From contig NC_009483.1 in NCBI RefSeq assembly GCF_000016745.1, positions 4,170,001 to 4,202,000 of the forward strand: 32,000 nucleotides of DNA, in the 5' to 3' direction. The translations under genes and the position numbers were made by a program. Positions within the stretch are counted from its first letter, which is position 1; each line of letters opens with the position of its first letter. Below the pieces are notes generated by a model. The model was not told the DNA's origin. It made no database searches and saw only the letters and a program-made list of their open reading frames with translations. The stretch is from Geotalea uraniireducens Rf4 (lineage in GTDB: Bacteria > Desulfobacterota > Desulfuromonadia > Geobacterales > Geobacteraceae). This document shows, one piece after another, positions 1 to 23,792 of this stretch.

Positions 1-357
1 GACGAGGGTTGGCGCAAGAATGGTCATGATCCGGGAGAGGACCCTGGCATCAGCCACGGCGTCCCCCCCCTCCAGGCCATGATCCCAGAACCGTATCCCC
101 CGGTCAGCCCCCATGGAGAAGGCAAGCCGCAAGGTGTCGTCAAGACGGGCGGGACCGACTGCAAGAACGGTCACCGTGGCGCCGACTCTGTCTTTAAGGC
201 AGAGCGCCTCTTCCAGGGCCGCAAGATCGGCCGGGTTCGGTACGCGCCTTAAGCCCCGGTCGCTGATGCCAGCGCCCCGCGTGATGACGCGGGCCGGGGG
301 GCGAGGATCACTGCTCTCCCGAAGGAGGACGAGTATGTTGAGTTTTTTCTGTGGCAT
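1..357 (-). CDS. etfB: Electron transfer flavoprotein beta subunit (EtfB/FixA-like). N-terminal 119 codons only; the 3' end runs off the window.
   Basis: Not in the ORF track because it is open to the window edge. Manual reverse translation from ATG at 357 gives MPQKKLNILVLLRESSDPRPPARVITRGAGISDRGLRRVPNPADLAALEEALCLKDRVGATVTVLAVGPARLDDTLRLAFSMGADRGIRFWD. This matches the usual EtfB N-terminal pattern (NP.D..ALEEAL.LK ... V.V...GP ... A.AMGADR). Confidence 0.8.
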   Translation of the reverse strand, partial: MPQKKLNILVLLRESSDPRPPARVITRGAGISDRGLRRVPNPADLAALEEALCLKDRVGATVTVLAVGPARLDDTLRLAFSMGADRGIRFWDHGLEGGDAVADARVLSRIMTILAPTLV

Positions 358-379
358 GGGTAACTCCTGAAATTAATTT

Positions 380-436
380 TGAATTATGAATGTTGAATTT
401 TGAATTAAATTCAAAATTAAGAGTTCAAAATTCAAA
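380..436. repeat. Heptamer tandem array (TGAATTN x4) abutting an inverted array (AATTCAA-like x4). The core is an 11-bp dyad, GAATTTTGAAT(T)/AATTCAAAATT.
   Basis: Read directly: tgaatta tgaatgt tgaattt tgaatta | aattcaa aattaag agttcaa aattcaa. It lies in the 86-nt gap between the fixX stop (444) and the etfB start (357). Confidence 0.8.
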
Positions 437-443
437 ATTGCCT

Positions 444-722
444 TTACGTCATTCGGTACGCGACGCCGAATCCTCCCCGCGGGTAGCGCCAGCGGGTGAA
501 GGCGTTCTTGTGGCAGACCACATAGCAGGTGCCGCATTCCAGGCAGCCGTCATGGACGAAGGTCATTATTTGCTCCTCCTCCGACCAGGTGTAGCAACGG
601 GCGGGACAGGAGTTGGTGCAGCCGCGATTGTCGCAGCCGACGCAGACCGCAGTATCGAGAACGATATGGGGTTCCCGGTCGATGGTGAAACTGGTGAAGT
701 CGAATATTTCGTCTATGTTCAC
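444..722 (-). CDS. fixX: FixX-type ferredoxin-like protein (partner of ETF-quinone oxidoreductase)
   Basis: The 92-aa ORF carries Cys clusters CVGCDNRGCTNSCPARC and CLECGTCYVVC. It has the size and motif layout of FixX. The GTG start overlaps the fixC stop (GTGA). Confidence 0.85.
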   Translation of the reverse strand: MNIDEIFDFTSFTIDREPHIVLDTAVCVGCDNRGCTNSCPARCYTWSEEEQIMTFVHDGCLECGTCYVVCHKNAFTRWRYPRGGFGVAYRMT

Positions 723-2017
723 AATGCCCTCCAGGCGGTCAGGGCGTCGGAGATGGCGTTCTTCAGGCCGACCCTCTCCTTCACCTCCCGCAGGATGAGT
801 TTGGGGATGCTCATCTTTGGGGTGCCGTCGATGCGGTAGATGTGTTCCATCATGCTGCAGACCAGTTCCGGGTACTCATTGTAGATCCGCTCGATGTGGA
901 GCATCTTGGGAGCGTTTCTGAACCCCTTCAGGTCCTTCATTACCCAGCTCAGGTCGAGCCGTTCCTTGTAGCGTTTGAGCGTTTTCAGGGAAAAGTCCTG
1001 CTGCTGATGCGCCTCGATGACGGTCTTTCCCGCCAGGATGCCGGAGTGGGAGGCCAGGTTGATCCCCTCCAGGTTGACGCCGGTGGCATTACAGAGCGCA
1101 GCGGCGTCGCCGGCGACCAGAATGCCGTTGCCGGCCAGTTCCGGAATCATGTTGTAGCCACCTTCGGGGATGACGTGTGCCGAATATTCCTGCAACCGTC
1201 CCCCCCGCACCAGCTTGGCCACCTGCGGTTGCTCCATGAACTCGTTGAGCAGGTCGTAGGGGGTCTTGCCACTGGTGCGCAGACTGGCCAGGTGAAACAC
1301 CAGGCCGATCGAAAGCGAATCGTAGTTGGTGTAGAGGAAACCGCCACCGCGAACACCGCCGGTGCAGCCGACGAACTCATTGGCAAAGCCCTGGTCCCGA
1401 ACCAGCCCAAAGCGATCGTCGATCATCTCTCGCGGCATGTCGATCAGCGCCTTGACACCCACAGCCATCTGATCGGCATTGAACTTGGGACGGCGCAATC
1501 CGGCCTTCTGGGCCGTGAACGACAGTACACCGTCGGCGGCGATCACCACCGGGGCCTTGATCTGTCCCGTGCGTCCCAGGATGGAGACCCCGGCGATCCG
1601 GTCGTTCTTGTAGATCAGGTCGTCCACCGTGGAACGGGTGATCAGGGTGGCGCCGGCTTTGACGGCCTCTTCGGCCAACCAGCGATCAAAGCGGGGGCGG
1701 AAGACGGTATAACCGTTGTAGGGGGCGCGGTCGAAGTTGGTGGTTTCATGCTGTACGTTGAAGCTGGCCTCCGCCGTCATGAAGGTTGTCCCCTTCTTGG
1801 CGATGTGCCGCTCCAGGGGCGCCTTGGTCCAGAAGTCGGGCATGAGCTCTTCGATGGAGGTCATGCGGTGCAGGATGCCGCCGAACATGTTCTTTTCGCC
1901 CGGAAATGTGCCGCGCTCAACAAGGGCCACGTCCAGCCCGGCCCGCGCCATGGTCAATGCGGCCGAGGAGCCGGCCGGTCCCGCACCGACTACGATTGCC
2001 TGATACTGTTTACTCAT
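719..2017 (-). CDS. fixC: FixC-type FAD-dependent ETF:quinone oxidoreductase
   Basis: 432 aa. The N-terminal dinucleotide fold is AIVVGAGPAGSSAALTMARAGLDVALVERG, with an internal GDAA motif (LVAGDAAALCN). The ATGA overlap with the etfA stop and the following fixX complete the context. Confidence 0.85.
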   Translation of the reverse strand: MSKQYQAIVVGAGPAGSSAALTMARAGLDVALVERGTFPGEKNMFGGILHRMTSIEELMPDFWTKAPLERHIAKKGTTFMTAEASFNVQHETTNFDRAPYNGYTVFRPRFDRWLAEEAVKAGATLITRSTVDDLIYKNDRIAGVSILGRTGQIKAPVVIAADGVLSFTAQKAGLRRPKFNADQMAVGVKALIDMPREMIDDRFGLVRDQGFANEFVGCTGGVRGGGFLYTNYDSLSIGLVFHLASLRTSGKTPYDLLNEFMEQPQVAKLVRGGRLQEYSAHVIPEGGYNMIPELAGNGILVAGDAAALCNATGVNLEGINLASHSGILAGKTVIEAHQQQDFSLKTLKRYKERLDLSWVMKDLKGFRNAPKMLHIERIYNEYPELVCSMMEHIYRIDGTPKMSIPKLILREVKERVGLKNAISDALTAWRAL

Positions 2018-3018
2018 GGCGCACCTCCGACGCTCGATTTAACCCGATCCAGGAGGCGCGGCAGCACCTCCTTCAGATCGGCCACGAACCCCTCGTCGGA
2101 GTTGGTGAAAATGGGAGCCTTGGCATCGCTGTTGACCGCCACGATCCGCTTGGAATCCTTGATCCCTCCCACGTGGTGCATGGAGCCGGAAATGCCGAGT
2201 GCCAGGTAGAGCCGCGGGACCACGGTCCGGCCGGTCTGGCCGACCATCCGCTCGAAGCCGGTCCACCCCAGGTCGTAAACGGGGCGGGTAACGCCATAGG
2301 AGACATTCAACAATTTGCAGAGTTCTTTGAACTGCTCAAAGATGGCCGGATCGCACCCCTTACCGACGCTGAAGATCACTTCCGCCTCGGTCAGATCCAC
2401 GGTCTGCGGATCGGGCGGAATCCGCTCGATGATCGTGCCGGTGGCTCCGGTCGGCAGGGCCGCCGGTTGCCAGGTGACCATTGCGGGCGTGGTTGCGGTC
2501 ACCGATGGCATCAGGACCTGGCTTAAGGAGCGGGTCGGTACGGTGATCACCAGGGGGCGGTTGCCGTCCCAATTCTTGGTCTCCGCGATCCGGCTGCCGA
2601 GGGCCTGGCGGGAGAAACGCACCCCTTCCGGACCACGGCGGCCGCTGACCACCTCGGTCATGATGGCGGCATCCAGCGCCGCCGCCACCACCGGCGCCAG
2701 GGTGGCACCCAGGTCGTTATGGGGAAGCACCAGGAGGTTGGCCGACTGCTCGGCCACGAGCTGCGCCAGTGCTTTGCCGAGCAGAACCGGCGCGTCGAGC
2801 AGGGACTCGCACCCGGCCATCCGGGTGATGGCCGGAGTACCATAGGTGCCGAATTGGGCTAGAGCCTCTCCCTCCGGGAGAACGGGAGTGACCGCCCCCC
2901 AGCTGCCGTCGATGAAGCCGGCCAGCCTGGCACCGTAGGAGAGGAGCCCCCGTCCGGTCTCACCGAGTTCGCCATCGGGGAGATCGGCAAAAACGAGGAT
3001 CTTAGCGGTGAAGGACAT
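2014..3018 (-). CDS. etfA: Electron transfer flavoprotein alpha subunit (EtfA/FixB-like)
   Basis: 334 aa. The C-terminal FAD-binding signature is LYLALGISGSMHHVGGIKDSKRIVAVNSDAKAPIF (compare GISGAIQH.AG...S..IVAIN.D..APIF). The start overlaps the upstream stop (ATGA). Confidence 0.88.
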   Translation of the reverse strand: MSFTAKILVFADLPDGELGETGRGLLSYGARLAGFIDGSWGAVTPVLPEGEALAQFGTYGTPAITRMAGCESLLDAPVLLGKALAQLVAEQSANLLVLPHNDLGATLAPVVAAALDAAIMTEVVSGRRGPEGVRFSRQALGSRIAETKNWDGNRPLVITVPTRSLSQVLMPSVTATTPAMVTWQPAALPTGATGTIIERIPPDPQTVDLTEAEVIFSVGKGCDPAIFEQFKELCKLLNVSYGVTRPVYDLGWTGFERMVGQTGRTVVPRLYLALGISGSMHHVGGIKDSKRIVAVNSDAKAPIFTNSDEGFVADLKEVLPRLLDRVKSSVGGAP

Positions 3019-4979
3019 CAGATCTCCCTCCCGATCTTGTGCCCTTCCCAGATGGCCATGTCCACCTTGCGGGGAGCAACGCAGTCGCCAATCCGATACA
3101 ACTCCGGCACCTTCCCTTTCAGGCTCATGTACAGGTCTTCCTCCACCTGCTGTCCCATGACCAGAACGATGGAGTCATAGGGACCCCAGTCGAACCAAAC
3201 GTTGGAGTAGACATTGAACCCCTTGACGGTCTTGGCACCTGCTTCACCGCCGACTTCCATCACGGCGATGTCGGGAGTAAAGGTGACCCCCTTCTGCAGC
3301 AGCCGCTGGCGTGACGAGTAGAGGTCCTGGGTCGGTCCCAGCTCTGCGCAGATGAAGAGGCTGGAGGTGATCATGTCGATCTTTTTCCCCTGGTTGGCCA
3401 GGAACTCGGCGGTCGCCGTGGCGCGCTGGTGTCCGTCGTAGTCGATCAGACAGACGTTCTGTCCCAGTTCGGCCTCACCGTTCAGCACCTGCAGGACATT
3501 GAAGATTGCCGGACCGTCGGCGCCACCCACCGGGTGCTTCTTGGGGATGCTGCCGGTGGCCACAATCACCACGTCGGGCTTCTCGGCCAGGAGCTGTTCG
3601 GTGGTCGCCTCAGCGCCAAGCTTGACGGTCACGCCGGCTTTGTCCACCTGACTCTTCTCGTTGCGGATGATGACGCCGAACTCGTCGCGGCCGGTCCCCT
3701 TCATGGCGGTCACCACCTGCCCACCCAGGCCCTCGTTCCGATCGATGAGGGTGACCTTGTGGCCGCGGCGGCCGGCCATCTTGGCGGCCCACATGCCGGC
3801 CGGGCCACCGCCGACGATGGTCACATTTTTCTTCACGCTGGCCTTTTCCAGGGTACCTTCACCCCACTCCTTTTCCCGGCCGACAGCCGGGTTCTGGACG
3901 CAGCCGAGCGTCTTGTTCATGCCGATCCGGCCGATGCACCCCTGGTTGCAGGCGATGCAGTAGCGGATGTCTTCCAGCCGACCTTCCTGCGCCTTCTTCG
4001 GGAGGAACGGGTCGCAGATGAGTCCCCGGCACATGCCGATCATGTCGGCCTGGCCGTTGGCCAGCACCTTCTCGGCCATGACCGGGTCGTTGATCCGGCC
4101 GGTGCAGAAGACCGGCAGCTTGATCCGCTCCCGGATGCCGGCAGCCAGCGGGATGGTGTAGCCGAGCGGGGTGTGCATGGAGCCTTCCACCAGGTAGAGG
4201 TTGTAGAAGGTGGCAATGGAGAGGTCCATGAAGTCGATAAGTCCCGAGGCCTCGAAGCGGGCGCAAATTTCCTGCACCTGGGCCAGGTCCAGGCCGCCTG
4301 GAATCATCTCGTCGGCGCACATCCTGATGCCGAGGGTGAAGTCGTTCCCCACCGCCTTGCGGACCGCAGCGATGAACTTGAGCGGTGCCCGCATCCGGTT
4401 CTCCAGGCTCCCGCCGTACTCGTCGTTGCGGAAGTTGGTGAGCGGCGACAAGAACTGGCGAGCCAGACTGGAATGGCCGAACTGCAACTCGATCCCGTCG
4501 AATCCACCTTCACGGACGTGAATGGCACTCTTGGCAAAATAGCGGGCCACTTCCTCGATATCCTCCGGTTCCATTGCCTTTGGCGTCTCCCGGAACAGGA
4601 CATCCGGAATCGGCGACGGTGCCCAGACCGGCAACCGGGAGATGCTGCCGTCACCCTGCTGGCCGTTGTGGTTCAACTGGGCGAAGATCTTGGCGTCATA
4701 CTGGTGCACGTAGTCGGTGATCTTCTTGAAGCCGGGAATCACCTCTGCATGGTAGACATCGATCAGCTTCTCGTAGGCCATGTCGGTCGGATGGACCGTC
4801 AACTCCTCGGTGATAATGAGACCGGCCCCCCCCTTGGCCCTCTCGCCCCAGTAGTACATCTGCCGTTCGCTGGGAAGATTGCCTATCGCCAGGTTGGTCA
4901 GGTGCGGCTGGAAGGAAATGCGGTTCTTCACCTCGGTCGTACCCAGCTTGAGGGGTGAAAACAGATTCGGGAACATCAT
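3018..4979 (-). CDS. Fe-S flavoprotein of the 2,4-dienoyl-CoA reductase / trimethylamine dehydrogenase / NADH:flavin oxidoreductase family (OYE-like FMN barrel + 4Fe-4S + ADP-binding domain)
   Basis: 653 aa. The OYE-like N-terminus is LFSPLKLGTTEVKNRISFQPH. The Cys motif is YCIACNQGCIGRIGMNKTLGCVQNP. The second Rossmann motif is VTIVGGGPAGMWAAKMAGRRGHKVTLIDR. An AAGGAG RBS is present, and the gene starts 24 nt after the mftC stop. Confidence 0.8.
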   Translation of the reverse strand: MMFPNLFSPLKLGTTEVKNRISFQPHLTNLAIGNLPSERQMYYWGERAKGGAGLIITEELTVHPTDMAYEKLIDVYHAEVIPGFKKITDYVHQYDAKIFAQLNHNGQQGDGSISRLPVWAPSPIPDVLFRETPKAMEPEDIEEVARYFAKSAIHVREGGFDGIELQFGHSSLARQFLSPLTNFRNDEYGGSLENRMRAPLKFIAAVRKAVGNDFTLGIRMCADEMIPGGLDLAQVQEICARFEASGLIDFMDLSIATFYNLYLVEGSMHTPLGYTIPLAAGIRERIKLPVFCTGRINDPVMAEKVLANGQADMIGMCRGLICDPFLPKKAQEGRLEDIRYCIACNQGCIGRIGMNKTLGCVQNPAVGREKEWGEGTLEKASVKKNVTIVGGGPAGMWAAKMAGRRGHKVTLIDRNEGLGGQVVTAMKGTGRDEFGVIIRNEKSQVDKAGVTVKLGAEATTEQLLAEKPDVVIVATGSIPKKHPVGGADGPAIFNVLQVLNGEAELGQNVCLIDYDGHQRATATAEFLANQGKKIDMITSSLFICAELGPTQDLYSSRQRLLQKGVTFTPDIAVMEVGGEAGAKTVKGFNVYSNVWFDWGPYDSIVLVMGQQVEEDLYMSLKGKVPELYRIGDCVAPRKVDMAIWEGHKIGREI

Positions 4980-5003
4980 GATTAGTGGCTCCTTGAAGAT
5001 TTA

Positions 5004-6047
5004 TCAGGCGGCCTGCGCCGCTTTATTCGCGTCGGCAATGGAGGTCACGCAGCGCTCCAGGCACTCCGGGTCTCCGCCGTTGATGTCGTTTTTCAGGTGC
5101 CAGGCAACGGCCGGACAGCCGCCGTGGCACTGGTCGAAGCGGTTGCACTCCTCGCAGGAGTGGATCCGCAGGGAACGGAACGAGTCGTATATTTCCGAGC
5201 TGTCCCAGATCTCCTGGAAGCTCTGCTCCCGGAGCGAACCGGCCTTGAACCGGTCAGTCTGAAGAAAGGCACAGGGGTACATGTTGCCAGTGGGACCAAC
5301 ACAGCAGGTCAGCTTGGCCGCACCGCAGAGGTTCAAGCCCAGCCCCTGCCGCTCCTGTGAGGTCAGGGAGAAGAAGCTGTCGCCGGTCCGAACATCGCCG
5401 CTCTTGGCCAGCCAGTCGGAGAATGCGAGCAGCTGGGCCGGTGTCGGCCGGAGTTCTTCCCAGTTGTCCGCCCCCCGCCCGGACGGACGGAAGCGGCTCA
5501 CCCGCAGCGACACGCCGAGGGAGTGTGCCATCTCGTACATGGCCGGGATCTGGCTGGCGTTCTGGGTAGTGAGAACAGTATTGATGCTGGTCGGGATCGA
5601 GGTGGCGGCCAGAAGTTTGATCGCCTCGATGGCCTTGTGGTAAACACCTTTGCCGCGGATGGCGTCGCAGGTTTCCGCTGTGGCACCATCCATGCTGACC
5701 TGGATGGCAACCAGCCGGGTCGTGGCCAGACGGGCGACCCGCTCGGCATTGAGCAGGGTCCCGTTGGTGGAGATGCAGGTCATGATGCCCCGGCCATGAC
5801 AGGCGACCAGGATCTCTTCAAAATCGGGACGGAGAAACGGTTCGCCGCCGCCGAAATTGATCTGGAAGACTCCGGCCTGGTGGACTTGCTCCACCAGGTC
5901 GAGGGCTTCGGCCGTGGAGAGCTCGCCAGCGGCGGGCTCTCCGGAAGACGAAAGACAGTGGGTGCAGCGGAGGTTGCAGGCCAACGACACTTCCCAGGTC
6001 AAGTTCACCGGGGAACGAAGCCCCAGTTCGACATATCTATTGCTCAC
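5004..6047 (-). CDS. mftC: Mycofactocin radical SAM maturase MftC (radical SAM + SPASM domain)
   Basis: 347 aa. The CxxxCxxC motif is SLACNLRCTHC. The SPASM Cys motifs are CGAAKLTCCVGPTGNMYPC and CEECNRFDQCHGGCPA...DPEC. The GTG start overlaps the mftB stop by 11 nt. It lies directly downstream of MftA/MftB-type ORFs. Confidence 0.85.
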   Translation of the reverse strand: MSNRYVELGLRSPVNLTWEVSLACNLRCTHCLSSSGEPAAGELSTAEALDLVEQVHQAGVFQINFGGGEPFLRPDFEEILVACHGRGIMTCISTNGTLLNAERVARLATTRLVAIQVSMDGATAETCDAIRGKGVYHKAIEAIKLLAATSIPTSINTVLTTQNASQIPAMYEMAHSLGVSLRVSRFRPSGRGADNWEELRPTPAQLLAFSDWLAKSGDVRTGDSFFSLTSQERQGLGLNLCGAAKLTCCVGPTGNMYPCAFLQTDRFKAGSLREQSFQEIWDSSEIYDSFRSLRIHSCEECNRFDQCHGGCPAVAWHLKNDINGGDPECLERCVTSIADANKAAQAA

Positions 6048-6291
6048 GGAGAAACCCCTTTTCTAGAAGTTGGGTAACGAATTTCTGTAATGCCCGCTTC
6101 TGGTTGTCGGTCAGTCCCTCGGGGAGTTCATCCCTGTTGCGGACGGCCCCGTAGAAGTCTGCTGGAAGCAGCTTGCCGGTCTCGGCAAAGAGAAGGCGCG
6201 GCCCCCGTGAATCATAAAAAAGGAGGCCAAACCCTTCCTGCCGCACGCGACAAGCGGGGTGAAGTCGTATGCCTGCGCCTGCCGCTGCCAT
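6037..6291 (-). CDS. mftB: Mycofactocin precursor chaperone MftB (PqqD-family RRE protein)
   Basis: The track ORF 6037..6366 is trimmed to the internal ATG at 6291, which lies one base after the mftA TAA. The product is MAAAGAGIRLHPACRVRQEGFGLLFYDSRGPRLLFAETGKLL. This fits the MftB/PqqD pattern (L.P.v..R.E.FG.L.Y......L.F). Confidence 0.8.
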   Translation of the reverse strand: MAAAGAGIRLHPACRVRQEGFGLLFYDSRGPRLLFAETGKLLPADFYGAVRNRDELPEGLTDNQKRALQKFVTQLLEKGFLREQ

Positions 6292-6292
6292 G

Positions 6293-6400
6293 TTAGTAAA
6301 CCCCGCAGATGCCGTCGATTGCGAGCTCTTCAACCTGGATCTCTTCCAGAATCCGTGGCTCCTCATTACATGTTTCGTTTGTCTGTTTTTCAGTTTCCAT
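6293..6400 (-). CDS. mftA: Mycofactocin precursor peptide MftA (35 aa), absent from the supplied ORF track
   Basis: Manual reverse translation from ATG 6400 to TAA 6293 gives METEKQTNETCNEEPRILEEIQVEELAIDGICGVY. The C-terminal IDG.CGVY is the hallmark of MftA. AAGGAG lies 7 nt upstream of the ATG. Confidence 0.85.
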   Translation of the reverse strand: METEKQTNETCNEEPRILEEIQVEELAIDGICGVY

Positions 6401-6465
6401 TTTTCTTCTCCTTTAGAGTGTTCTTTTCTGCGCAGATTTCGTTGCGCGTTTTATATACGGTATTA

Positions 6466-6481
6466 TGCAACGCCGATGCCA
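6466..6481 (-). promoter_or_regulatory. sigma54 (-24/-12) promoter for the mftA operon
   Basis: The minus strand reads TGGCAT-CGGCG-TTGCA with correct GG-N10-GC spacing. It lies about 66 nt upstream of the mftA ATG. Confidence 0.7.
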
Positions 6482-6621
6482 AAAAATAAAACAACGATTT
6501 ATACGTAAATTCCATGGCATTAGCAACAGGCAAATATGGCAGATTTCCATCGAATTGTGGAGAAATGGGGCAACCCATAAGAAAAGAACGTGTCCGCACC
6601 ATAGCTTGATTGTCGACTTTC

Positions 6622-6646
6622 TCCACAACGGGGATTTTATCTACAC
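6622..6646. promoter_or_regulatory. Candidate enhancer (UAS) site TCCACAACGGGGA plus an ATCTACAC half-site
   Basis: It lies about 148 bp upstream of the -24 GG of the mftA promoter. It matches 11 of 13 positions with TCCACACTGGGGA at 16694-16706, and resembles sites at 18215-18227, 23990-24001 and 24012-24023. Confidence 0.5.
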
Positions 6647-6741
6647 TATAATAAACCTGTGTTTTGATTTTATAGGTAGCACCATACTAAAATGGGAAAA
6701 TCGCAATTTAAATTTACCCGGCAGCGGCAATAAAAGGCTCG

Positions 6742-6773
6742 CCCGCGATGGCGGCTTGGCACCATGCCGCGGG
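6742..6773 (-). terminator. Possible terminator hairpin after the HD-GYP operon
   Basis: The minus strand reads CCCGCGGCATGG-loop-CCATCGCGGG, a 10-bp stem with a 2-nt bulge. A TTTTATT run follows, but only after a 6-nt gap, so this is a weak call. Confidence 0.3.
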
Positions 6774-6952
6774 ACCGGATTCTGTCGAAAAGGCGCTAAG
6801 GGAGCTGTTCTTTGGAGATCAAGGATAAGTTGTCAGGCGGTTTTCGGAGCTTAATATTGAGAGAGGAATCAGGGAAGATGGCTGCAGGACTCAGCGCTAT
6901 ATATGCAGGAATTGAAATATTTGGCAGGCTTTCGGAGGGCGGTACGCCCATG

Positions 6953-8212: not shown

Positions 8213-8268
8213 TTATGGGTGCCCTCCTCATGTTTCCGGTTGTTTGGAGAAGGCGAGCAGACCGGCCG

Positions 8269-8685: not shown

Positions 8686-8708
8686 GTAGTTCCTCCTTGT
8701 TTGGTTTA

Positions 8709-9326: not shown

Positions 9327-9601
9327 GGGGCATTCTCTTTTTATCTGTCGCAGAAAAGCACCGCCCAGCGGCTTTATCGTGCGGTATTATTTTTAACAGG
9401 CCCAAAAATGACCAAAAAGGTCGTTTTTGTCAACATATTTCCTGCCAGGATTAAGGCACTTGATTTTTTGCAGAGGGGTTTTGCCTGGAATTGCTGAAAA
9501 CGAACCTTTTTCATTTGTAAAAACTCCCCGCTGCCTTGACACCTCAAGATTAAATTTTTTCCATTTGCACAGCAACGGTCTAATGGTAGATTATTAAATG
9601 A

Positions 9602-12609: not shown

Positions 12610-14016
12610 TCACCAATGGCTGCGCCCGCCAGGGTCGAAACTCGGCTGACTGCCGCCACTTGTACCACGCTTATAGTAGTCCTTGGAATCATAGGTTTCC
12701 GCTGCTTTGGCTTCCTGCAGGCGTTTTTTGTCAATCGGATCTGCCCGGTCGGCATATATGTCTCGCAGCAGGTTTTCGACGACCATGCTCAGATCTTCCA
12801 CCGTTTTTACTACCTCCACCTTGTCGCAATATGCGCCGTAGATATCCATCAGACAGTCGCCGCGACTCCAGGTATCACGATCTTCCGGGGTAAGCCAGAG
12901 CATATAGCGGGCCTTCTCGCGGATCTCGTCCAGCACCCAGTCGTTGGCCTCGTCGTAGTTGTTGCGTGCATCTCCCAGGATGATAAAGGCCGGTCTCCCC
13001 CGCAGGTTTTCCAGATACCTTTTCTTGAAGTTCAGAAACACCTGGCCGAAACTGCTATTTTCATCCAGATCAACGATGTCCCCCTTGTCAATGGTTTCCA
13101 TCAGGTCGTTGACAGGCATGTTTGCCAGCATTTCTGTGATTTCCGCCACTTCCCGATTGAAGATGAAACTGCGGACATCCAGCATCTGATTATGCAGGGT
13201 ATGAAGAAGCAGCAGCATGAAGCGGGAGGCATGGCTCACGGAAAAGCTGACATCACACAGAACCACCAGTCGCGGTTTTTCCCTCCGTTTTCGACGTAAT
13301 GCCACCTGGAACGGCACCATGTCGTGACGGTAATTTTTCTGGATCGTCTTGATGACGTGGAGTTTTCCGCGATTCTGATTATTCTTCATCCGTTTCATAT
13401 CTTTGCGCAGACGCAGCATCATGCGGGAAACCACGTCCTGCATGGCGGCCTGCTCTTCAGGCGTAAAGGTGACGCCCCTGTTGGTGCTGTTGCTCTTGTT
13501 AAGCTCGATCGTGAGCGGATTCTGCGTATAGCGTCGCGACGGCCGGGGCGCTTTCGACTTTCCGCGGTACCCCTTCATCTGGACAACTATTTCAATACCA
13601 TCCGTGTCGTCCGGATCAATCTCTGTCAGGCTTTTCAGCTCGGCTAAATCTTCCGGATTGATATCGCTGTCAAGTTTGAGCAGCGGGCCGTTCTCATCGT
13701 GATCGTCACCCGGCAGTTGGTCGAGGTAGTTGAATTCCCCCTCCATGCCGATGATGGCGGCGTCCATGAGATCGGGAATATCGACGTCCGGGTCGACAGA
13801 CTGGAACCGGCTGAAAAAACGGTTGAAGACCTCATTGAATACCGGAATGTCATTGACATTCTTCACCAGAGTCAGACGCAGGAGCCGCCGGGTCAACCGG
13901 CGCCGTTCCATTCCGGCCAGCGCCAGGGCCTGGACCGCATCCAGGCTTTCACCTGGTGATACGCGGATGCCGCTTTCACGAAGAGCGGCGACGAAACGGG
14001 TGATTATTCGTTCCAT
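12610..14016 (-). CDS. VWA-domain protein of the CoxE type (partner of the MoxR/CoxD ATPase)
   Basis: 468 aa. The N-terminus is RFVAALRESGIRVSPGESLDAVQAL. A MIDAS-like VVLCDVSFSVS is present, along with the C-terminal block AFIILGDARNNY. It starts 2 nt after the MoxR stop. Confidence 0.75.
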   Translation of the reverse strand: MERIITRFVAALRESGIRVSPGESLDAVQALALAGMERRRLTRRLLRLTLVKNVNDIPVFNEVFNRFFSRFQSVDPDVDIPDLMDAAIIGMEGEFNYLDQLPGDDHDENGPLLKLDSDINPEDLAELKSLTEIDPDDTDGIEIVVQMKGYRGKSKAPRPSRRYTQNPLTIELNKSNSTNRGVTFTPEEQAAMQDVVSRMMLRLRKDMKRMKNNQNRGKLHVIKTIQKNYRHDMVPFQVALRRKRREKPRLVVLCDVSFSVSHASRFMLLLLHTLHNQMLDVRSFIFNREVAEITEMLANMPVNDLMETIDKGDIVDLDENSSFGQVFLNFKKRYLENLRGRPAFIILGDARNNYDEANDWVLDEIREKARYMLWLTPEDRDTWSRGDCLMDIYGAYCDKVEVVKTVEDLSMVVENLLRDIYADRADPIDKKRLQEAKAAETYDSKDYYKRGTSGGSQPSFDPGGRSHW

Positions 14017-14018
14017 GG

Positions 14019-15065
14019 CTAGCTCATTTCCTGCACAGCCAGTTCCGTAACCTTCTGCAGGTCTGTCTGGTGTTTGGCAATCACGCCGACGGTATTGGCT
14101 ACCACCTCCGGTGTAAGCTGTGTCGCCTTCATGATCGAAAGCACCTGTGCCCAGTCAAGGGTTTCGGAAACACTGGGGGGCTTGCGCAGATTCAGTTCGC
14201 GGGCCTTACGCAGGAATGCCACCATCTGCTGTGCCAGATCCCCGCAGAGGTCGGGGAATTTTGCCCGGACGATCGCTACTTCCCGCTCCAGCTCCGGATA
14301 ACCGATATAGAGATACAGGCAGCGCCGGCGCAACGCGTCGGAGATCATCCGCGTGCCGTTACTGGTCAGGATCGTCAGCGGCTTTCTCTTGGCCTCGATT
14401 ACCCCCAATTCGGGGATCGAAACCTGAAAGTCGCTCAGACACTCCAGAAGCAGCGCTTCGAATTCATCGTCGGAGCGGTCGATCTCATCGATAAGCAACA
14501 GCGAACGTTTTTCGGACAAGAAACTGCGCAGAATCGGTCGCTGTACCAGGAAATTTTTTGAAAAAAACAGGCTCTCTTCGGCAGAAAGACGCTCGACGGC
14601 TTCCCGCAGGTCAGCTGATACGGAGAGGTAGGTATCTAGCTGGGTACGCAGCAATTGGGTATAGAGCAGCTGTTTGCCGTACTCCCAATCATAGAGTGCC
14701 TTTCCCTCGTCGATCCCTTCGTAGCACTGCAGTCTCACCAGGGGAAAATCCAGGGCAGAGGAGAGGGCCTTGGCCAGGCCGGTCTTCCCTACACCGGGAG
14801 GGCCTTCGATCAGGATCGGCTTCTCCATGTGGATGGCCAGAAAAACGGCGGTGGCGATGGCATCGTCGGCGATGTAGCCACTTGTGTTGAGAAGATCCTT
14901 AACCCCTTGTTCGGTAATCATGATGGCCTCGTAACGTTGAATTTTATATCTGTTAGTACTGTCTTTCATTGCAATCTTTGCGCCGGCAAGAGAACATTGT
15001 TTTAGATATTCAGATGCGGTGCGGACAGCTAATAAAATAAGCCGCTGGCGCCCGGTGAGGGACAT
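14019..15065 (-). CDS. MoxR/CoxD-like AAA+ ATPase. The true start is probably the internal ATG at 14969 or 14921.
   Basis: Walker A is LIEGPPGVGKTGLAKAL and Walker B is LLLIDEIDRSDDE. The size and the VWA partner downstream fit the MoxR family. Confidence 0.85.
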   Translation of the reverse strand: MSLTGRQRLILLAVRTASEYLKQCSLAGAKIAMKDSTNRYKIQRYEAIMITEQGVKDLLNTSGYIADDAIATAVFLAIHMEKPILIEGPPGVGKTGLAKALSSALDFPLVRLQCYEGIDEGKALYDWEYGKQLLYTQLLRTQLDTYLSVSADLREAVERLSAEESLFFSKNFLVQRPILRSFLSEKRSLLLIDEIDRSDDEFEALLLECLSDFQVSIPELGVIEAKRKPLTILTSNGTRMISDALRRRCLYLYIGYPELEREVAIVRAKFPDLCGDLAQQMVAFLRKARELNLRKPPSVSETLDWAQVLSIMKATQLTPEVVANTVGVIAKHQTDLQKVTELAVQEMS

Positions 15066-15124: not shown

Positions 15125-16330
15125 TTACATGCACTGGTGGAAGATGCCGATCATATCCTGCAGACCGGTATCGGTTGGGTTGCCCTCTGTGCAGATATCG
15201 TTCACGGAGAAACGCGACAGGCCTTCTACGTCTTTTTCAAGCAGACCGAGATCCGTGAAGGTCTTGGTGATGCCCAGATCGGCTTTCAGTTCCAAACAAG
15301 CCTGAATAAATGCTTCGCCAGCTTTCATATCGGACATTCCGCTTACGTCAATACCGGCAGCCTGTGCCATCATCCTGAAGCGCTCCGGGCAGGCCGGCAG
15401 GTTGAACTTCATGACCGGACCGAGACCGATGGCATTGCAGAGACCATGAGGAGCATCGTACATACCGCCCAGAGCATGGGCCATACTGTGAATAAGGCCA
15501 AGACCGGCGCTGTTGAAGCTGTAGGCGGCGGCCATTTCAGCCCATACCATCGCCTCGACAGCTTTGTCGTTGTTTCTGTTCATTGCCGATTGACGCAGGT
15601 TGCCGAAGATCAGCGAAATGGCGCTCAGGCCGGGGCCGTATGCGGAGACAACACCCAGACGGGATGTGATTGCTTCAACGCCGTGAGCAAGGGCATCCAT
15701 GCCGGTGTAACCGGCCAGGTCGCCAGACATACACTGGTGGATCAGCGGGTCATTGACGGATTTGCTGGGTGTACAGTTGGGATCGAACAAGGCCATCTTG
15801 TACTTCTTGTCGGTATGGTTGATGATCGAGAAGCAGGACACTTCCGAACCGGTACCTGAAGTGGTGTTGATGGCAAGCTGGGGAATCGTGTTGGCCTTGG
15901 TTGCCTTGAAAGCACCTTCAAAGCTTCTGACATCCTGACCGTCATGGCTGTGAACGAGTTTGATGGCCTTGCAGCAGTCGTGGGAGCTGCCGCCGCCGAG
16001 GCTGATGATACCGTCGAATTTGCCGGCGGCCAATACCTTGGCGCCTGCCATGACTTCATGATCTTTCGGGTTCGGTGTAACTTTGTCAAACACCTCGGAA
16101 GCAACCCCGGCAGCCTTCAGTACGCCCTGGATTGTCTCGACAATGCCGGTGCCGCGCAGGCCGGTAGTTACGATCAGCGCATTGGTCATACCCAGCGCCT
16201 TGGCGTCATTGCCAACCATCGTATGTGCACCCCAACCGACATTTACGGAAGGATATGCGTGCATCATCTTGATCGGGTATTCCAGCCTTTCGTTCTTCAG
16301 GGTCCGTTTTACATCTTTGTTGTGAGACAT
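15125..16330 (-). CDS. Iron-type (group III) alcohol dehydrogenase, paralog 1 (ADH1)
   Basis: 401 aa with GGGSSHDCCKAI and metal-site histidines (DALAHGVE, LIHSMAHALGGMYDAPHG). An AAGGAGGAAG RBS is present. The N-terminal region (YPIK...GWGAH...LIVTTGLRGTGI) reminds me of the nicotinoprotein methanol/NDMA-dependent subgroup, but this is not verified. Confidence 0.88.
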   Translation of the reverse strand: MSHNKDVKRTLKNERLEYPIKMMHAYPSVNVGWGAHTMVGNDAKALGMTNALIVTTGLRGTGIVETIQGVLKAAGVASEVFDKVTPNPKDHEVMAGAKVLAAGKFDGIISLGGGSSHDCCKAIKLVHSHDGQDVRSFEGAFKATKANTIPQLAINTTSGTGSEVSCFSIINHTDKKYKMALFDPNCTPSKSVNDPLIHQCMSGDLAGYTGMDALAHGVEAITSRLGVVSAYGPGLSAISLIFGNLRQSAMNRNNDKAVEAMVWAEMAAAYSFNSAGLGLIHSMAHALGGMYDAPHGLCNAIGLGPVMKFNLPACPERFRMMAQAAGIDVSGMSDMKAGEAFIQACLELKADLGITKTFTDLGLLEKDVEGLSRFSVNDICTEGNPTDTGLQDMIGIFHQCM

Positions 16331-20057: not shown

Positions 20058-21431
20058 CTACACGGCGAGGCCGTAACGTTCCAGCTTAGTGTAAAGGGTC
20101 TTGCGGTCGATTTCAAGTACCTTCGCAGCCTTGCTCTTGTTCCCCTCCAACTTCTCGAGCACCTTCTGGATATAGTCACGTTCGACGACCCAGAGCGGCA
20201 GCGGCAATACGTCGGGCAAACCGGTGACGGCAAACGACGGCGCAGTTTTGGGCGGCGAAAACGGCAGCAGGTCGGAAGAAATAATCTGGTCGGTTGCCAG
20301 GATACTGGCACGGCGGATGGTGTTCCGCAGCTCCCTTACGTTTCCCGGCCAGGAATAGGCGCAGAGGGCAGCCATTGCTTCCTCGGAGATCTCCCAGTTG
20401 GCGCTGCCGCTCTCGTTGGCGCTTTTAAGAAAATAGTACGAAAGCGGTATGATATCTTCCGGCCGCTCCCGCAAAGGGGGGATGTTGATGGGGAGGAGGT
20501 TGATGCGGTGGAACAGGTCTTCCCGGAACTCGCCACGATTCACGCAATCCTCGAGCTTTTTGTTGGAAGCGAAGACGAACCGGACATCTACGCTGATGTC
20601 GTGGTTCCCCCCCATGCGTCGGAAGGTGCCGGTCTCCAGGATACGGAGAAGCTTCACCTGTACATCCAGCGGCATTTCCGATATCTCGTCCATGAACAGG
20701 GTACCGGTGTCGGCCAATTCGAAGAGACCGGCCCGACCTTTATTTGCGCCGGTGAAAGCCCCCTGCACATGGCCGAATAGTTCGCTCTCGGCGGTGTTGG
20801 CGCTGAGCCGGCCGCAATTGACCGTTACAAAAGGCTTGTTGGCCCGACGACTGGCGTCGTGGACGGCCCGGGCGAACAGTTCCTTGCCGGCGCCGCTCTC
20901 TCCGCAGATGAGGACATGCTCGTCGGTGGCCCCCCAACGCCGGACGGTTTCAAGTACCTTTTGGATGACCTGGCTTTTGCCGACAATACGGTGTTGGTCA
21001 AGCTTGCTGATTTCCAGTTTCAGATTGATATTTTCCAGACGCAGGCGGTTTTTTTCATTGGCCTTGTCGATCACCATCTCCAGTTCATCCAGCTTGACCG
21101 GCTTGGTAAGGTAGTCATACGCCCCATACTTGATGCATTCGACAGCCGTTTCGATGGTACCGTGGCCGGTAAAGACGATAACCTCGGGGATTGTCGATTC
21201 GGTCCGCATCTGCCTGAGAACCTCCACCCCGTCCATCCCCGGCATCCTCATGTCGAGAAGAACGACATTGAAAACCTCCTGCCGGTATTTGTCGAGTCCT
21301 TCTTCACCGTCAGACGCTGATTCGACCTTGTAGCCGCTCCGGGTAAGTTCCATGTGAAGGAGCTCCCGTAATGGTTTGTCATCTTCTATAACAAGAATTT
21401 TTGCCTCTTTGCGCGTTACTACTGTTGACAT
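20058..21431 (-). CDS. NtrC-family sigma54-dependent response regulator (REC + AAA+ + Fis-type HTH)
   Basis: 457 aa. The REC domain shows ILVIEDD...VVLLDMRMPGMDG. Walker A is GESGAGKE. GAFTGA is present (HVQGAFTGAN). The C-terminal HTH is NKSKAAKVLEIDRKTLYTKL. Confidence 0.93.
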   Translation of the reverse strand: MSTVVTRKEAKILVIEDDKPLRELLHMELTRSGYKVESASDGEEGLDKYRQEVFNVVLLDMRMPGMDGVEVLRQMRTESTIPEVIVFTGHGTIETAVECIKYGAYDYLTKPVKLDELEMVIDKANEKNRLRLENINLKLEISKLDQHRIVGKSQVIQKVLETVRRWGATDEHVLICGESGAGKELFARAVHDASRRANKPFVTVNCGRLSANTAESELFGHVQGAFTGANKGRAGLFELADTGTLFMDEISEMPLDVQVKLLRILETGTFRRMGGNHDISVDVRFVFASNKKLEDCVNRGEFREDLFHRINLLPINIPPLRERPEDIIPLSYYFLKSANESGSANWEISEEAMAALCAYSWPGNVRELRNTIRRASILATDQIISSDLLPFSPPKTAPSFAVTGLPDVLPLPLWVVERDYIQKVLEKLEGNKSKAAKVLEIDRKTLYTKLERYGLAV

Positions 21432-22627
21432 GCTGGAAGCCTCACCGTGAATTTAGATCCTTCTCCATGCTTACTTTCTACGTGGATCTCGCCGCCGTGC
21501 TTCTTAATAATATTATAGGTAACAGCCAGGCCGAGGCCAAGCCCCTGGCCCACATCTTTCGTGGTAAAGAACGGATCCCAAATCTGGTCCATGAGAGATG
21601 AAGGGATGCCGCACCCGCTATCGCAGATAGTGGCGGTCACCACTCCGTTCTGATCGAAGGTGGCAATTTTTATCATCCCGGGTCCGTCAATGGCCTGGAG
21701 AGCGTTCATAGTCAGGTTCATGAAAACCTGTCGTAGACCGGCCTCATCCCCCTTAATCATAGGCAGGTCCGGCTGCATGGATTCCTGTATCTCGATTTTT
21801 TCATTGCGGGCCTTATGCCGAACCAGTTCCAGGACCTCATTCAGGATCTTATTGAGATCCACAAACCCGACCGAACCCTCCGATTTCCGACTGAAACTCA
21901 GCAGACTGTCAATAATCCCCTTGCACCGGTAAGACTCGCGGATTATGACCTCCAGATATTTCTTGAAATCTTTGAGCCGGTTGTCCTCCACCAGTCCAGT
22001 CTCATCGCGGAACCTTCGCAGCAAGGCTTCGGCGTAACCGGCCACGGAGGTGAGCGGGTTGTTGATCTCGTGCGCCACACCAGCGGCAAGCATGCCGATA
22101 CTCGACATTTTCTCGGCCTGCACAAGTTGGAGCTCGTTAAGCCGCTTTTCGGTAACATCCCGGATGAATACGAGCGCGCGTGTTTGTTCGTTGGGATCTT
22201 CAATCGGGGTCGCCGTGACGTCGAAATAACGGCTTTCTCCGATCCCTTTCGTCGTTGTAAAGGAAATCTGCATGCTCTTGCCGGCCAAGGCCTGTTCTAC
22301 CGGGCATTGCTGGGGCGAATGGTCGCTTTCGGGGTGAAAAAGCGCCCTGCAACTCCGCCCGACAAGGGTTTCCGTGGGGAACAGCCTGGGACATACGTGA
22401 TTTCGATGCTGAATGCACCCATTATGATCGTAGATGACCACGCTGTCACTAATGGCATCAAAGACAGCCTGGAGTTCATTGGTTTTGATCCGCAAACCAA
22501 GGTTGGCTGCCTCCAATTCCTGGATTTTCTGTTTGACTTCCGAATAGAATCCGATCTTTGAGCTTTCAAGGCCCAGCAGACGTTCGAGATTCGGTTCGTC
22601 AATCAGTGTTCGCTTTGCTTCTCCCAT
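21419..22627 (-). CDS. PAS sensor histidine kinase (cognate to the adjacent regulator)
   Basis: The H-box is [18 protein letters not shown]. HATPase boxes are NLTMNALQA, DSGCGI and GQGLGLGL. The preferred start is ATG 22627, one nt after the ADH2 stop. The track start at 22669 would overlap ADH2 by 41 nt. Confidence 0.88.
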   Translation of the reverse strand: MGEAKRTLIDEPNLERLLGLESSKIGFYSEVKQKIQELEAANLGLRIKTNELQAVFDAISDSVVIYDHNGCIQHRNHVCPRLFPTETLVGRSCRALFHPESDHSPQQCPVEQALAGKSMQISFTTTKGIGESRYFDVTATPIEDPNEQTRALVFIRDVTEKRLNELQLVQAEKMSSIGMLAAGVAHEINNPLTSVAGYAEALLRRFRDETGLVEDNRLKDFKKYLEVIIRESYRCKGIIDSLLSFSRKSEGSVGFVDLNKILNEVLELVRHKARNEKIEIQESMQPDLPMIKGDEAGLRQVFMNLTMNALQAIDGPGMIKIATFDQNGVVTATICDSGCGIPSSLMDQIWDPFFTTKDVGQGLGLGLAVTYNIIKKHGGEIHVESKHGEGSKFTVRLPACQQ

Positions 22628-22628
22628 C

Positions 22629-23792
22629 TCAGTAGGCCCTTTCGAGAATTGCCAGGAGGTCTTTTTCATCGGCCTGGCGTGGTGAAGTCACGATGCAAAC
22701 GTCTTTGAGAGCCTTTCGGGCCAGTTCCGGCAAATCCTTGCGTACAACACCCAGACTTCTCAGGCTCCGGGGCGCACCAGCGGCTTCGAGCATGGAAACC
22801 AGCGTTTCCTGAACCACTTCCGACGCAGTGTTAGTGCTCCCGTCAGTCCGGTGGCCGAGGCCCCAGGCCAGTTCCGGCAGTTTTTCCGTTACGACCGGGA
22901 TGTCATACTTGATCACTTCCGGCAGCAGTACCGCATTGATGCTGCCATGGTTCGCGTCGTAGAGTCCGCCGATCGGGTGAGCCAGGGCATGGACAATGCC
23001 GAGAAGGGAATTGGAAAACGCCATCCCGGCGTGAAGGCTGGCCCTGGCAAGATTCTCCAGGTCGGCTGCTTTTCGCTCCCTGACTGCCTCGACCAAGCTG
23101 GTCGAAACAAGGCGTAATGCCTTAATGGCATGGACGTCGGTGAGGGAGGTGGAAGCCACTGAAAAAAAGGCCTCAAGCGCATGGCTGAGAGCGTCGGTTG
23201 CAGTAGTGCAGACATACTCGTCAGGAAGGGTTTCAAGGGTATCCGGGTCGGTCAGGCTGATGTCGGGAGCGACGCAGCGGCTCATGATGGTCAATTTGCA
23301 GTGCTGCTCGGTGTCGGTGATGATGGCGAACTGGGAAACATCGGAACCGGTCCCGCAGGTGGTCGGACAAAGGACAAGCGGAGGAAGTGGACGGAAAATC
23401 TTGTCGGACCCTTCGAAATCCTTGATCCGCCCGCCATTGGAAACGAGTATGGCGATACCTTTGGCCGCATCCATGGCGCTCCCCCCTCCAAGCCCCACAA
23501 TGACATCGGCCCCGTGACGAATATATTCCAGGGCTCCAGCCTCCACCTCCACATCCTTCGGATTCGGCGTGATATTATCGTAGAAAATCACCTCAAGCCC
23601 CGCATCCATGATGTTTTTGATGGCCTTGTCCACCCATCCGGCGCTGAAGAGCCCCTGATCGCTGACCAGAAAAACCTTGTGACCACCCAGGCGTCGGGCG
23701 CACGAGCCGATCTGGCTCAGCAGCCCTCTGCCGAAGATGATCTCCGGCACTTCGAATTTGCAGTGATGAAGATTGCTCTCCACATTAACCAT
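22629..23792 (-). CDS. Iron-type alcohol dehydrogenase, paralog 2 (ADH2)
   Basis: 387 aa with GLGGGSAMDAAKGI, DALSHALE and IVHALAHPIGGLYDANHG. An AAGAGG RBS is present. Confidence 0.9.
   Translation of the reverse strand: MVNVESNLHHCKFEVPEIIFGRGLLSQIGSCARRLGGHKVFLVSDQGLFSAGWVDKAIKNIMDAGLEVIFYDNITPNPKDVEVEAGALEYIRHGADVIVGLGGGSAMDAAKGIAILVSNGGRIKDFEGSDKIFRPLPPLVLCPTTCGTGSDVSQFAIITDTEQHCKLTIMSRCVAPDISLTDPDTLETLPDEYVCTTATDALSHALEAFFSVASTSLTDVHAIKALRLVSTSLVEAVRERKAADLENLARASLHAGMAFSNSLLGIVHALAHPIGGLYDANHGSINAVLLPEVIKYDIPVVTEKLPELAWGLGHRTDGSTNTASEVVQETLVSMLEAAGAPRSLRSLGVVRKDLPELARKALKDVCIVTSPRQADEKDLLAILERAY

Follow-up and report, generated by a model that had tools for sequence, protein, structure and literature searches.

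A mycofactocin gene cluster of Geotalea uraniireducens with an OYE-family flavoprotein, ETF and FixCX genes between mftC and mftF

The DNA analysed here is a 32,000-nucleotide stretch of the chromosome of Geotalea (Geobacter) uraniireducens Rf4 (NC_009483.1, positions 4,170,001 to 4,202,000), referred to throughout as the window. At its left end, on the minus strand, lie the mycofactocin genes mftA, mftB and mftC, followed head to tail by genes for an OYE-family flavoprotein (OYE2), for the subunits of an electron transfer flavoprotein (ETF) and for the proteins FixC and FixX. An earlier note on this DNA had taken the arrangement for a functional unit not known to have been characterised. At the level of catalogues that view overstates the novelty, as G. 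uraniireducens Rf4 is listed as a mycofactocin carrier and its cluster is drawn in Figure 2 of Haft 2011 (PMC3023750), OYE2 falls within the curated family TIGR03997, and models of mycofactocin-associated ETFs exist. Both the cluster and the link between it and an OYE-family protein are thus catalogued knowledge and not a new system. The literature search on mycofactocin with ETF, FixCX or Geobacterales returned only Haft 2011 and a genome note on G. pickeringii.

Gene order and continuation of the cluster

From the promoter element leftwards, the window contains the following features.

6466..6481, minus strand: sigma-54 (-24/-12) promoter element TGGCATCGGCGTTGCA, of the form TGGCAT-N5-TTGCA, upstream of mftA, found by regular-expression search
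6293..6400, minus strand: mftA, mycofactocin precursor peptide of 35 aa with the C-terminus IDGICGVY
6037..6291, minus strand: mftB, chaperone that binds the precursor, 84 aa counting from an ATG at 6291
5004..6047, minus strand: mftC, radical SAM/SPASM maturase, 347 aa, GTG start
3018..4979, minus strand: OYE2 flavoprotein, 653 aa, FMN / 4Fe-4S / FAD
2014..3018, minus strand: etfA, ETF alpha subunit, 334 aa
719..2017, minus strand: fixC, ETF:quinone-oxidoreductase-type flavoprotein, 432 aa
444..722, minus strand: fixX, ferredoxin-like partner of FixC, 92 aa, GTG start
358..443, minus strand: fixX-etfB hairpin spacer, AU-rich, with inverted arrays of AATTTTGAA-like repeats
1..357, minus strand: etfB, the first 119 of 296 codons; the gene crosses the left window edge

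The products of the first genes all score above curated cutoffs. MftA matches TIGR03969 at 43.7 bits (cutoff 25) and PF23709, and it scores best with the "variant-type" precursor family NF040489 (variant_MftA, 47.4 bits, cutoff 30). MftB reaches 68.1 bits against TIGR03967 (cutoff 33), and MftC, with its Radical_SAM and SPASM domains (NCBIfam, Pfam), reaches 353.1 bits against TIGR03962 (cutoff 265). OYE2 matches TIGR03997 over residues 5-653 at 1016.7 bits (cutoff 793) and is 100% identical to the Geotalea uraniireducens protein named "mycofactocin system FadH/OYE family oxidoreductase 2" at NCBI.

When remeasured, nearly all the junctions described in the earlier note were reproduced: a 1-nt gap between mftA and mftB, an 11-nt overlap of mftB with mftC, 24 nt between mftC and the flavoprotein gene, an ATGA overlap of etfA with fixC, a GTGA overlap of fixC with fixX, and 86 nt containing a hairpin between fixX and etfB. 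The junction of the flavoprotein gene with etfA, given there as an ATGA overlap, proved to be a 1-nt TGATG overlap. All genes but mftB and mftC have a GGAG-type ribosome-binding site ahead of the start codon, and a pattern scan of the minus strand from 1 to 7000 gave no terminator-like and no sigma-70-like site.

Two contigs that are 100% identical to the window (L003 over 1-10294, L004 over 1-6004) carry the gene string further to the left. There etfB is complete (296 aa) and is followed on the same strand, after a 73-nt gap, by mftF, which lies outside the window and encodes a 477-aa GT2 glycosyltransferase (TIGR03965, 381.8 bits, cutoff 280). Because all four core genes, mftA, mftB, mftC and mftF, exceed their curated cutoffs and OYE2 is identical to the named protein, the locus is almost certainly the mycofactocin gene cluster of G. 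uraniireducens, of the type found in anaerobes.

The earlier note had described eight genes running from the sigma-54 promoter; the genes and their order hold good, but the count does not, as mftF continues the string. It had also described a minimal mftABC joined to the electron-transfer genes rather than to mftD, mftE and mftF, from which one might picture a non-glycosylated product and an ETF chain in place of those genes. For the window itself the absence of these protein types was confirmed: domain scans of its 28 large open reading frames (ORFs) with Pfam or NCBIfam revealed no MftD, MftE, MftF, MftR or GMC-type protein, and tblastn queries of MftD, MftF and an MftE-like protein had no match there. 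This absence within the window speaks for a minimal system. However, because the contigs identical to the window carry mftF 73 nt after etfB, the claim of a minimal cluster falls; mftF also follows etfB in essentially every related locus, and MftC, MftF and MftB have been reported to co-occur invariably (Haft 2011, PMC3023750). A minimal, non-glycosylating system is accordingly a reading to which we attach almost no weight. The flavoprotein, ETF and FixCX genes are inserted between mftC and mftF and are no substitute for tailoring genes.

Past mftF, still on the operon strand (L004:8135-12134), lie genes for a 67-aa ORF, a NosP-like FIST sensor, an aldehyde:ferredoxin oxidoreductase (AFOR) of the tungsten/molybdenum type, and a protein resembling ThiS/MoaD. 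Beyond the left edge, the coding strand has its first terminator-like site only after the AFOR gene. In about 30 Desulfuromonadales loci mftF is followed by an AFOR gene, whose product, 87-94% identical across most loci of that order, is among the most conserved proteins of the cluster. As a whole, the region resembles a single alcohol-to-acid oxidation island.

Conservation of the module and features of its proteins

Conservation was assessed chiefly in two sets of loci. A search of species-representative genomes with the MftC of the window yielded 80 loci, all from Desulfuromonadales, at 72-97% identity, and a metagenome search seeded with a 66%-identical OYE2 representative yielded 66 loci of a second clade (clade 2). 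Among the loci that span mftC to mftF, the order mftABC-OYE2-etfA-fixC-fixX-etfB-mftF occurs in 55 of 58 from Desulfuromonadales, and clade 2 keeps the same module order in 28 of 29, which supports the tie of the electron-transfer genes to mftABC proposed in the earlier note. Identity of the clade-2 proteins to those of the window is approximately 52% for FixC, 50% for MftC, 38% for MftF, 35% for EtfA and 30% for EtfB. OYE2 lies directly downstream of mftC in 69/80, 9/14 and 45/66 loci of three locus sets, the remainder being mostly contigs that are too short. Seen from the flavoprotein, every clade-2 OYE2 gene whose contig reaches at least 1.5 kb further upstream has mftC there; the sole OYE2 gene of the OYE2-seeded search that has this much sequence and no upstream mftC (L156) has mftA adjacent to it.

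The same core is found in a Firmicutes genome, an Alicyclobacillaceae metagenome-assembled genome (L170), where a Zn-dependent alcohol dehydrogenase gene (Zn-ADH, TIGR03989) is followed in turn by mftA, mftB and mftC, an OYE paralogue, OYE2, etfA, fixC, fixX, etfB and mftF, and then by an SDR gene and a gene for a creatininase-family protein. The OYE2 proteins of these lineages also belong to TIGR03997 (943 bits for the clade-2 representative P0121, 881 bits for the Firmicutes protein). An MftA match was obtained in 127 related loci, and save for one spurious match all of them keep the C-terminal motif DG[IV]CGVY. The nine-gene core is an old, cohesive unit in at least three deep lineages, in which the OYE2-ETF-FixCX genes are conserved members of the mycofactocin cluster and share its orientation.

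The cluster shares with the canonical actinobacterial system of Mycobacterium and Rhodococcus (mftR, mftA-F, mftG) the CGVY end of MftA, together with MftB, MftC and MftF, all above cutoffs, and an association with nicotinoprotein dehydrogenases of the Fe-type alcohol dehydrogenase (Fe-ADH), Zn-ADH and SDR types. It differs from that system in that the window cluster encodes no MftD, MftE, TetR-type MftR or GMC-type MftG, has a sigma-54 promoter in place of MftR control, contains the five-gene module OYE2-etfA-fixC-fixX-etfB between mftC and mftF, and has an MftA with the core IDGICGVY that is described best by the variant-type precursor model.

Among characterised and solved proteins the best scores of the three-domain OYE2 are to BaiCD (391 bits), 2-naphthoyl-CoA reductase (NCR, 6QKG, 339 bits) and 2,4-dienoyl-CoA reductase (DCR, 1PS9, 284 bits), and weaker ones are to trimethylamine dehydrogenase (TMADH, 236 bits), with histamine dehydrogenase also among the closest structures. 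OYE2 retains the 4Fe-4S motif CxxCxxC...C after the FMN barrel (segment ryCiaCnqgCigrigmnktlgC, aligning with DCR, NCR and TMADH) and the first dinucleotide loop, GGGPAG. The second, NADPH-binding loop, which is GCGGIG in 1PS9, reads DYDGHQ; the pyridine-nucleotide site has therefore likely been lost, and the altered loop suggests a protein redox partner. At the position of Cys30 of TMADH stands a Leu (PHL, against PHC in 1DJN and 6DE6), Tyr169 of TMADH is replaced by Gln, and the HGY of classical ene-reductases is replaced by HSS, with loss of their Tyr proton donor. Judged by these residues, OYE2 belongs neither with reductases that depend on NADPH nor with amine dehydrogenases that carry a covalent flavin, and its identification as a TMADH-like amine dehydrogenase was dropped on account of the Leu for Cys30. 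The earlier description of the protein as a substrate dehydrogenase of the DCR/TMADH family thus survives loosely as a statement of kinship; neither the Cys30 of TMADH nor the NADPH loop of DCR is kept. In the Firmicutes locus, a second OYE-family paralogue (L170:7968-10004), below the cutoffs of both TIGR03996 and TIGR03997, lies directly upstream of OYE2.

The TMADH-ETF complex of Methylophilus methylotrophus (1O94) is among the known systems nearest to the module. TMADH and OYE2 share the three-domain architecture, the FMN barrel, the CxxCxxC...C motif and, as it seems, the loss of the NAD(P)H site; a dedicated ETF is the partner of TMADH and the presumed partner of OYE2, and the best solved match of the EtfB of the cluster is the ETF of this complex (beta subunit, 1O94_C). 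The differences are the substitutions described above, with no 6-S-cysteinyl FMN expected in OYE2, and the weaker score of OYE2 to TMADH than to NCR and DCR.

The ETF subunits themselves are less closely matched by curated families. EtfA (PF00766 and PF01012) has NF038209 (mft_etfA) as its best NCBIfam model, at 134.2 bits under a cutoff of 240, and full-length EtfB (PF01012) has TIGR04503, at 73.6 bits under a cutoff of 200. These are the models of the mycofactocin-associated ETFs, which share with the present proteins the association with mft genes. Because the scores lie far under the curated cutoffs, both in the window and in the Firmicutes cluster (163 and 79 bits), the ETFs found here fall into a different, uncurated branch. 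FixC is recognised by NF007450 (358 bits) and by the FixC model NF007542 (354 bits), both times under the cutoff; it has a weak ETFQO_UQ-bd match, and an ETF-QO_FixC_C domain is on record for it. FixX, with a Fer4_9 domain, has the FixX model NF011993 as its best match (56 bits, under the cutoff).

EtfA, EtfB, FixC and FixX are the four protein types of the bifurcating FixABCX/EtfABCX complexes of Azotobacter vinelandii and Thermotoga maritima (7KOE) and of the E. coli FixABCX and YdiQRST systems, and the 4-nt overlap of fixC with fixX, typical of those systems, is seen here too. One could therefore imagine a bifurcating or confurcating complex that couples mycofactocinol oxidation by way of OYE2 to the simultaneous reduction of menaquinone and ferredoxin, or the reverse. 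In keeping with this, the Thermotoga EtfABCX alpha subunit (7KOE_B) is among the best matches of EtfA, beside the non-bifurcating ETF of G. metallireducens (5OW0), and the AFOR that follows mftF in some 30 loci is ferredoxin dependent. However, no sign of NADH binding emerged, the closest structure to EtfB, 1O94, is a non-bifurcating ETF, and the segment of EtfB aligned with DGDTAQVGP of the clostridial ETF 5OL2_B, which we take to be the bifurcating-FAD-binding motif, reads DRGNDPVPA, a difference that rests on one pairwise alignment and is not decisive. The gene order, etfA-fixC-fixX-etfB, and the presence of an OYE-family dehydrogenase in the same operon also set the cluster apart from FixABCX. 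From these sequence features, the ETF of the cluster is probably non-bifurcating, and we consider the bifurcating alternative quite improbable.

A candidate electron route to menaquinone

In M. smegmatis, MftG, a single FAD-containing GMC enzyme, is the mycofactocinol dehydrogenase, which re-oxidises mycofactocinol and passes the electrons to the respiratory chain. Approximately a quarter of MftC-encoding genomes are without MftG, and what substitutes for it there has been called an open question; both G. uraniireducens and G. pickeringii are tabulated as having MftC and neither MftG nor any other GMC enzyme (Graca et al. 2025, supplementary table, PMC11778925). The window likewise has no ORF of GMC size or GMC type. 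We tentatively favour the reading that OYE2-ETF-FixCX oxidises reduced mycofactocin and delivers the electrons to menaquinone, which would make the module, an unrelated FMN/4Fe-4S/FAD OYE-family enzyme with an ETF and FixCX, a non-homologous functional counterpart of MftG.

On this reading, the Val-Tyr end of MftA would be decarboxylated and cross-linked by MftB and MftC, and MftF would glycosylate the cofactor core, both as in mycobacteria. Nearby Fe-type alcohol dehydrogenases, as nicotinoproteins, would reduce mycofactocin, and the FMN of OYE2 would re-oxidise the resulting mycofactocinol (E0' ~ -255 mV). Electrons would then pass through the Fe-S cluster of OYE2, and probably its FAD, to the dedicated, probably non-bifurcating ETF, and from there FixCX would hand them to menaquinone (~ -74 mV) for anaerobic respiration. 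With the published potentials of approximately -255 mV for the mycofactocin couple and -74 mV for menaquinone, such a flow would be downhill.

Several observations support this route. The module is conserved between mftC and mftF in three lineages, and genomes without MftG exist; TMADH, a homologue of OYE2, naturally donates electrons to an ETF, and EtfB is nearest to that very ETF, an analogy that suggests the same partnership here; and genes for Fe-ADH, Zn-ADH (TIGR03989) and mycofactocin-type SDR proteins flank the clusters, which, together with the AFOR gene after mftF, provides a catabolic context.

Other observations weigh against it or leave it incomplete. In three Desulfuromonadales loci (L020, L065 and L067) mftABC is followed directly by mftF, so the module is either dispensable or encoded elsewhere in those organisms. 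The ETF subunits fall short of the mycofactocin-associated ETF cutoffs by the wide margins given above, and the call that the ETF is non-bifurcating is based on one motif in one pairwise alignment. The literature search brought up no paper in which mycofactocin is connected with ETF or FixCX or in which such a route is tested in an anaerobe. Because OYE2 is nearer to the reductases BaiCD, NCR and DCR than to the ETF-linked TMADH, homology does not settle which way the electrons flow. Finally, genomes truly without MftD would still need an enzyme that forms the keto-amide, for which OYE2 would be the obvious candidate.

A further possibility is that OYE2 is a reductase fed by ETF-FixCX, or a dehydrogenase of some substrate other than the cofactor (enoyl, dienoyl, aromatic-CoA-like or amine), that lies in the cluster only through membership of the same regulon of alcohol/aldehyde catabolism. 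The nearest characterised relatives of OYE2, NCR, DCR, BaiCD and bilirubin reductase, are indeed C=C reductases, FixABCX-type systems probably feed reductases in E. coli, and the two OYE paralogues of the Firmicutes cluster suggest substrate diversification. Against this, OYE2 sits between mftC and mftF in three deep lineages whatever dehydrogenases flank the cluster, the one OYE2 gene without an upstream mftC still adjoins mftA, and the Tyr proton donor of ene-reductases has been replaced. We regard a substrate unrelated to the cofactor as rather improbable.

The other alternative concerns MftD, which belongs to the FMN_dh family (TIGR03966) and in M. smegmatis is needed for the redox centre of the cofactor, its mutant accumulating AHDP and making no mycofactocin. 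Neither an ORF nor a tblastn match for MftD was found in the window or the 5.5 kb to its left, and no MftD gene adjoins the cluster in 78 of the 80 Desulfuromonadales loci; the Firmicutes cluster and all 66 loci of clade 2 likewise have none. No Geotalea protein was among the best 120 matches to Desulfuromonadales MftD queries in two whole-database searches, a result that is suggestive only. Where MftD does occur, it is highly conserved (69-93% identity across phyla), and those of Desulfuromonadales share as much as 83% identity with MftD of actinobacteria, a sign of recent horizontal transfer or of a late acquisition. L065, one of the three loci without the module, has a bona fide MftD beside its cluster (TIGR03966, 667 bits, cutoff 471), and in two other loci (L087 and L034), which have the complete module, a bona fide MftD gene comes shortly after mftF. 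A strict mutual exclusion of MftD and OYE2, at which L065 hinted, is ruled out by these two. In addition, MftD genes unlinked to any mft gene occur (L086, L168 and L169), and MftD missing from the neighbourhood is therefore not necessarily missing from the genome. Whether adjacent to mft genes or not, MftD in Desulfuromonadales contigs is followed by a conserved 207-210-aa ORF and the ethanolamine ammonia-lyase genes eutBC (L087:10001-14293, L168:10001-14298).

This distribution invites the idea that OYE2 is an oxygen-independent replacement for MftD, itself probably oxygen dependent, oxidatively deaminating AHDP to premycofactocin with ETF-FixCX as a mere electron sink. The need for MftD in M. 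smegmatis, its absence beside nearly all of these clusters, its presence beside the module-less L065 and its apparently late arrival in Desulfuromonadales would all agree with this idea, as would the fact that OYE2 is FMN dependent and akin to ETF-linked amine dehydrogenases. However, in L087 and L034 an MftD gene stands beside an intact module, so that OYE2 is more than a plain equivalent of MftD. Moreover, OYE2 has a Leu at the covalent-FMN Cys of TMADH and histamine dehydrogenase and a Gln at Tyr169, the unlinked MftD genes mean that a gap in the neighbourhood need not be one in the genome, and a four-gene electron chain would be extravagant for a low-flux biosynthetic step. We consider the replacement of MftD unlikely as the sole function of OYE2. 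In the Firmicutes locus, its dedicated OYE paralogue could perform the deamination step.

A variant of the favoured route, in which OYE2 re-oxidises mycofactocinol, would have the same enzyme carry out both oxidations at one carbon of the scaffold, that of the AHDP amine (the MftD step) and that of the mycofactocinol hydroxyl (the MftG step), each by way of ETF-FixCX to menaquinone. This combination appears doubtful to us; if true, it would allow mycofactocin to be made and recycled independently of oxygen, with MftD as a late and dispensable addition in a few lineages.

MftE is a creatininase-family protein (TIGR03964). The scanned ORFs of the window contain no creatininase domain, and an MftE-like gene was found only in the Firmicutes locus, whose cluster has no MftD. 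Its product has MftE as its best match but is divergent and below the cutoff (133 bits, cutoff 172), and as a tblastn query, with correspondingly limited sensitivity, it gave no match in the window or in approximately 165 loci. MftE was also rejected as a conserved neighbour of the cluster, as it is not among the recurrent ORF families obtained by clustering 57 and 37 loci, with Pfam run on each family.

The biology of mycofactocin is known almost wholly from aerobic actinobacteria. With its strict conservation across three or more deep lineages of anaerobes, this cluster offers a concrete candidate substitute for MftG, namely a Fe-S flavoprotein of the OYE family with ETF and FixCX, and it raises the question of how the redox-active keto-amide forms where no MftD gene is nearby. 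If the proposed route is true, it would account for the transfer of electrons from alcohol oxidation to menaquinone in iron reducers and other anaerobes, and the ETF/FixCX family would gain a further physiological donor.

Regulation and flanking genes

Of 74 Desulfuromonadales loci, 73 have the sequence TGGCA[CT]-N5-TTGCA at a similar distance upstream of mftA, and no clade-2 locus has it. The sigma-54 promoter reported in the earlier note is therefore no chance match, and control of the cluster appears, from this conserved element, to be sigma-54 dependent and not MftR dependent. Possible regulators and a set of dehydrogenase genes lie further to the right in the window.

12610..14016, minus strand: VWA/CoxE protein (Pfam VWA_CoxE)
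14019..15065, minus strand: AAA ATPase (Pfam AAA; match to the MadB-family ATPase)
15125..16330, minus strand: Fe-type alcohol dehydrogenase (Pfam Fe-ADH; best NCBIfam model TIGR04266, NDMA-dependent methanol dehydrogenase, 302 bits, below cutoff)
20058..21431, minus strand: NtrC/AtoC-type sigma-54 activator (Sigma54_activat, Response_reg, HTH_8)
21419..22669, minus strand: PAS histidine kinase (HisKA, HATPase)

We infer that the NtrC/AtoC-type activator and the PAS kinase are candidate regulators of the sigma-54 promoter of mftA.

The spacer between fixX and etfB is predicted to fold into a stable RNA hairpin (minimum free energy -18.6 kcal/mol, z -3.2; none of 200 shuffled sequences was equally stable), built from seven copies of a repeat of approximately 7 nt that is confined to this site within the window. 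At the same junction, most Desulfuromonadales loci (L007-L087) also have a strong hairpin of unrelated sequence, formed either by heptad-repeat arms such as GGATGAA/TTCATCC or by GC-rich palindromes; in clade 2, fixX and etfB abut with no spacer. Because the position of the hairpin is conserved and its sequence is not, an intra-operon element for RNA stability or processing, or a hotspot for small repeats, is suggested.

The trio of Fe-ADH, AAA and VWA genes recurs upstream of mftA in many related loci, and at 12610-16330 it is likely to be a mycofactocin-dependent dehydrogenase set. A second Fe-type alcohol dehydrogenase, which is ErcA-like, is encoded at 22629-23792 on the minus strand. Fe-type alcohol dehydrogenase paralogues of G. 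uraniireducens have been tied to mycofactocin (Haft 2011, PMC3023750), and the two found here are probably the enzymes meant. In Desulfuromonadales the recurrent neighbours of the cluster also include genes for an MFS transporter and a PAS kinase and a divergently transcribed NUDIX gene, whereas clade 2 has Zn-ADH, Fe-ADH and SDR genes around the cluster. In the window, the genes next to the mft promoter on its upstream side encode two HD-GYP-type proteins and a hemerythrin (6953-9326, minus strand); in 29 of 57 related loci this position is occupied by the divergent NUDIX gene, whose product is NAD+ diphosphatase-like. NADH pyrophosphatase also surfaced in the phylogenetic profiling of Haft 2011 (PMC3023750).

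A second radical SAM/SPASM protein, of no assigned family and approximately 25-30% identical to MftC by tblastn, is encoded at 16798-17895 on the minus strand. It recurs in seven related loci, and yet another radical SAM/SPASM protein is encoded after mftF in nine loci. The remaining genes of the window include two ORFs (24647-25891 and 27190-28218) with no Pfam or NCBIfam family match, a minus-strand gene at 19028-20311 for a MoaA with a 100-aa N-terminal extension and, at the right window end, a plus-strand gene pair for HdrC/QmoC-like and HdrB-like (CCG domain) proteins at 28940-30811.

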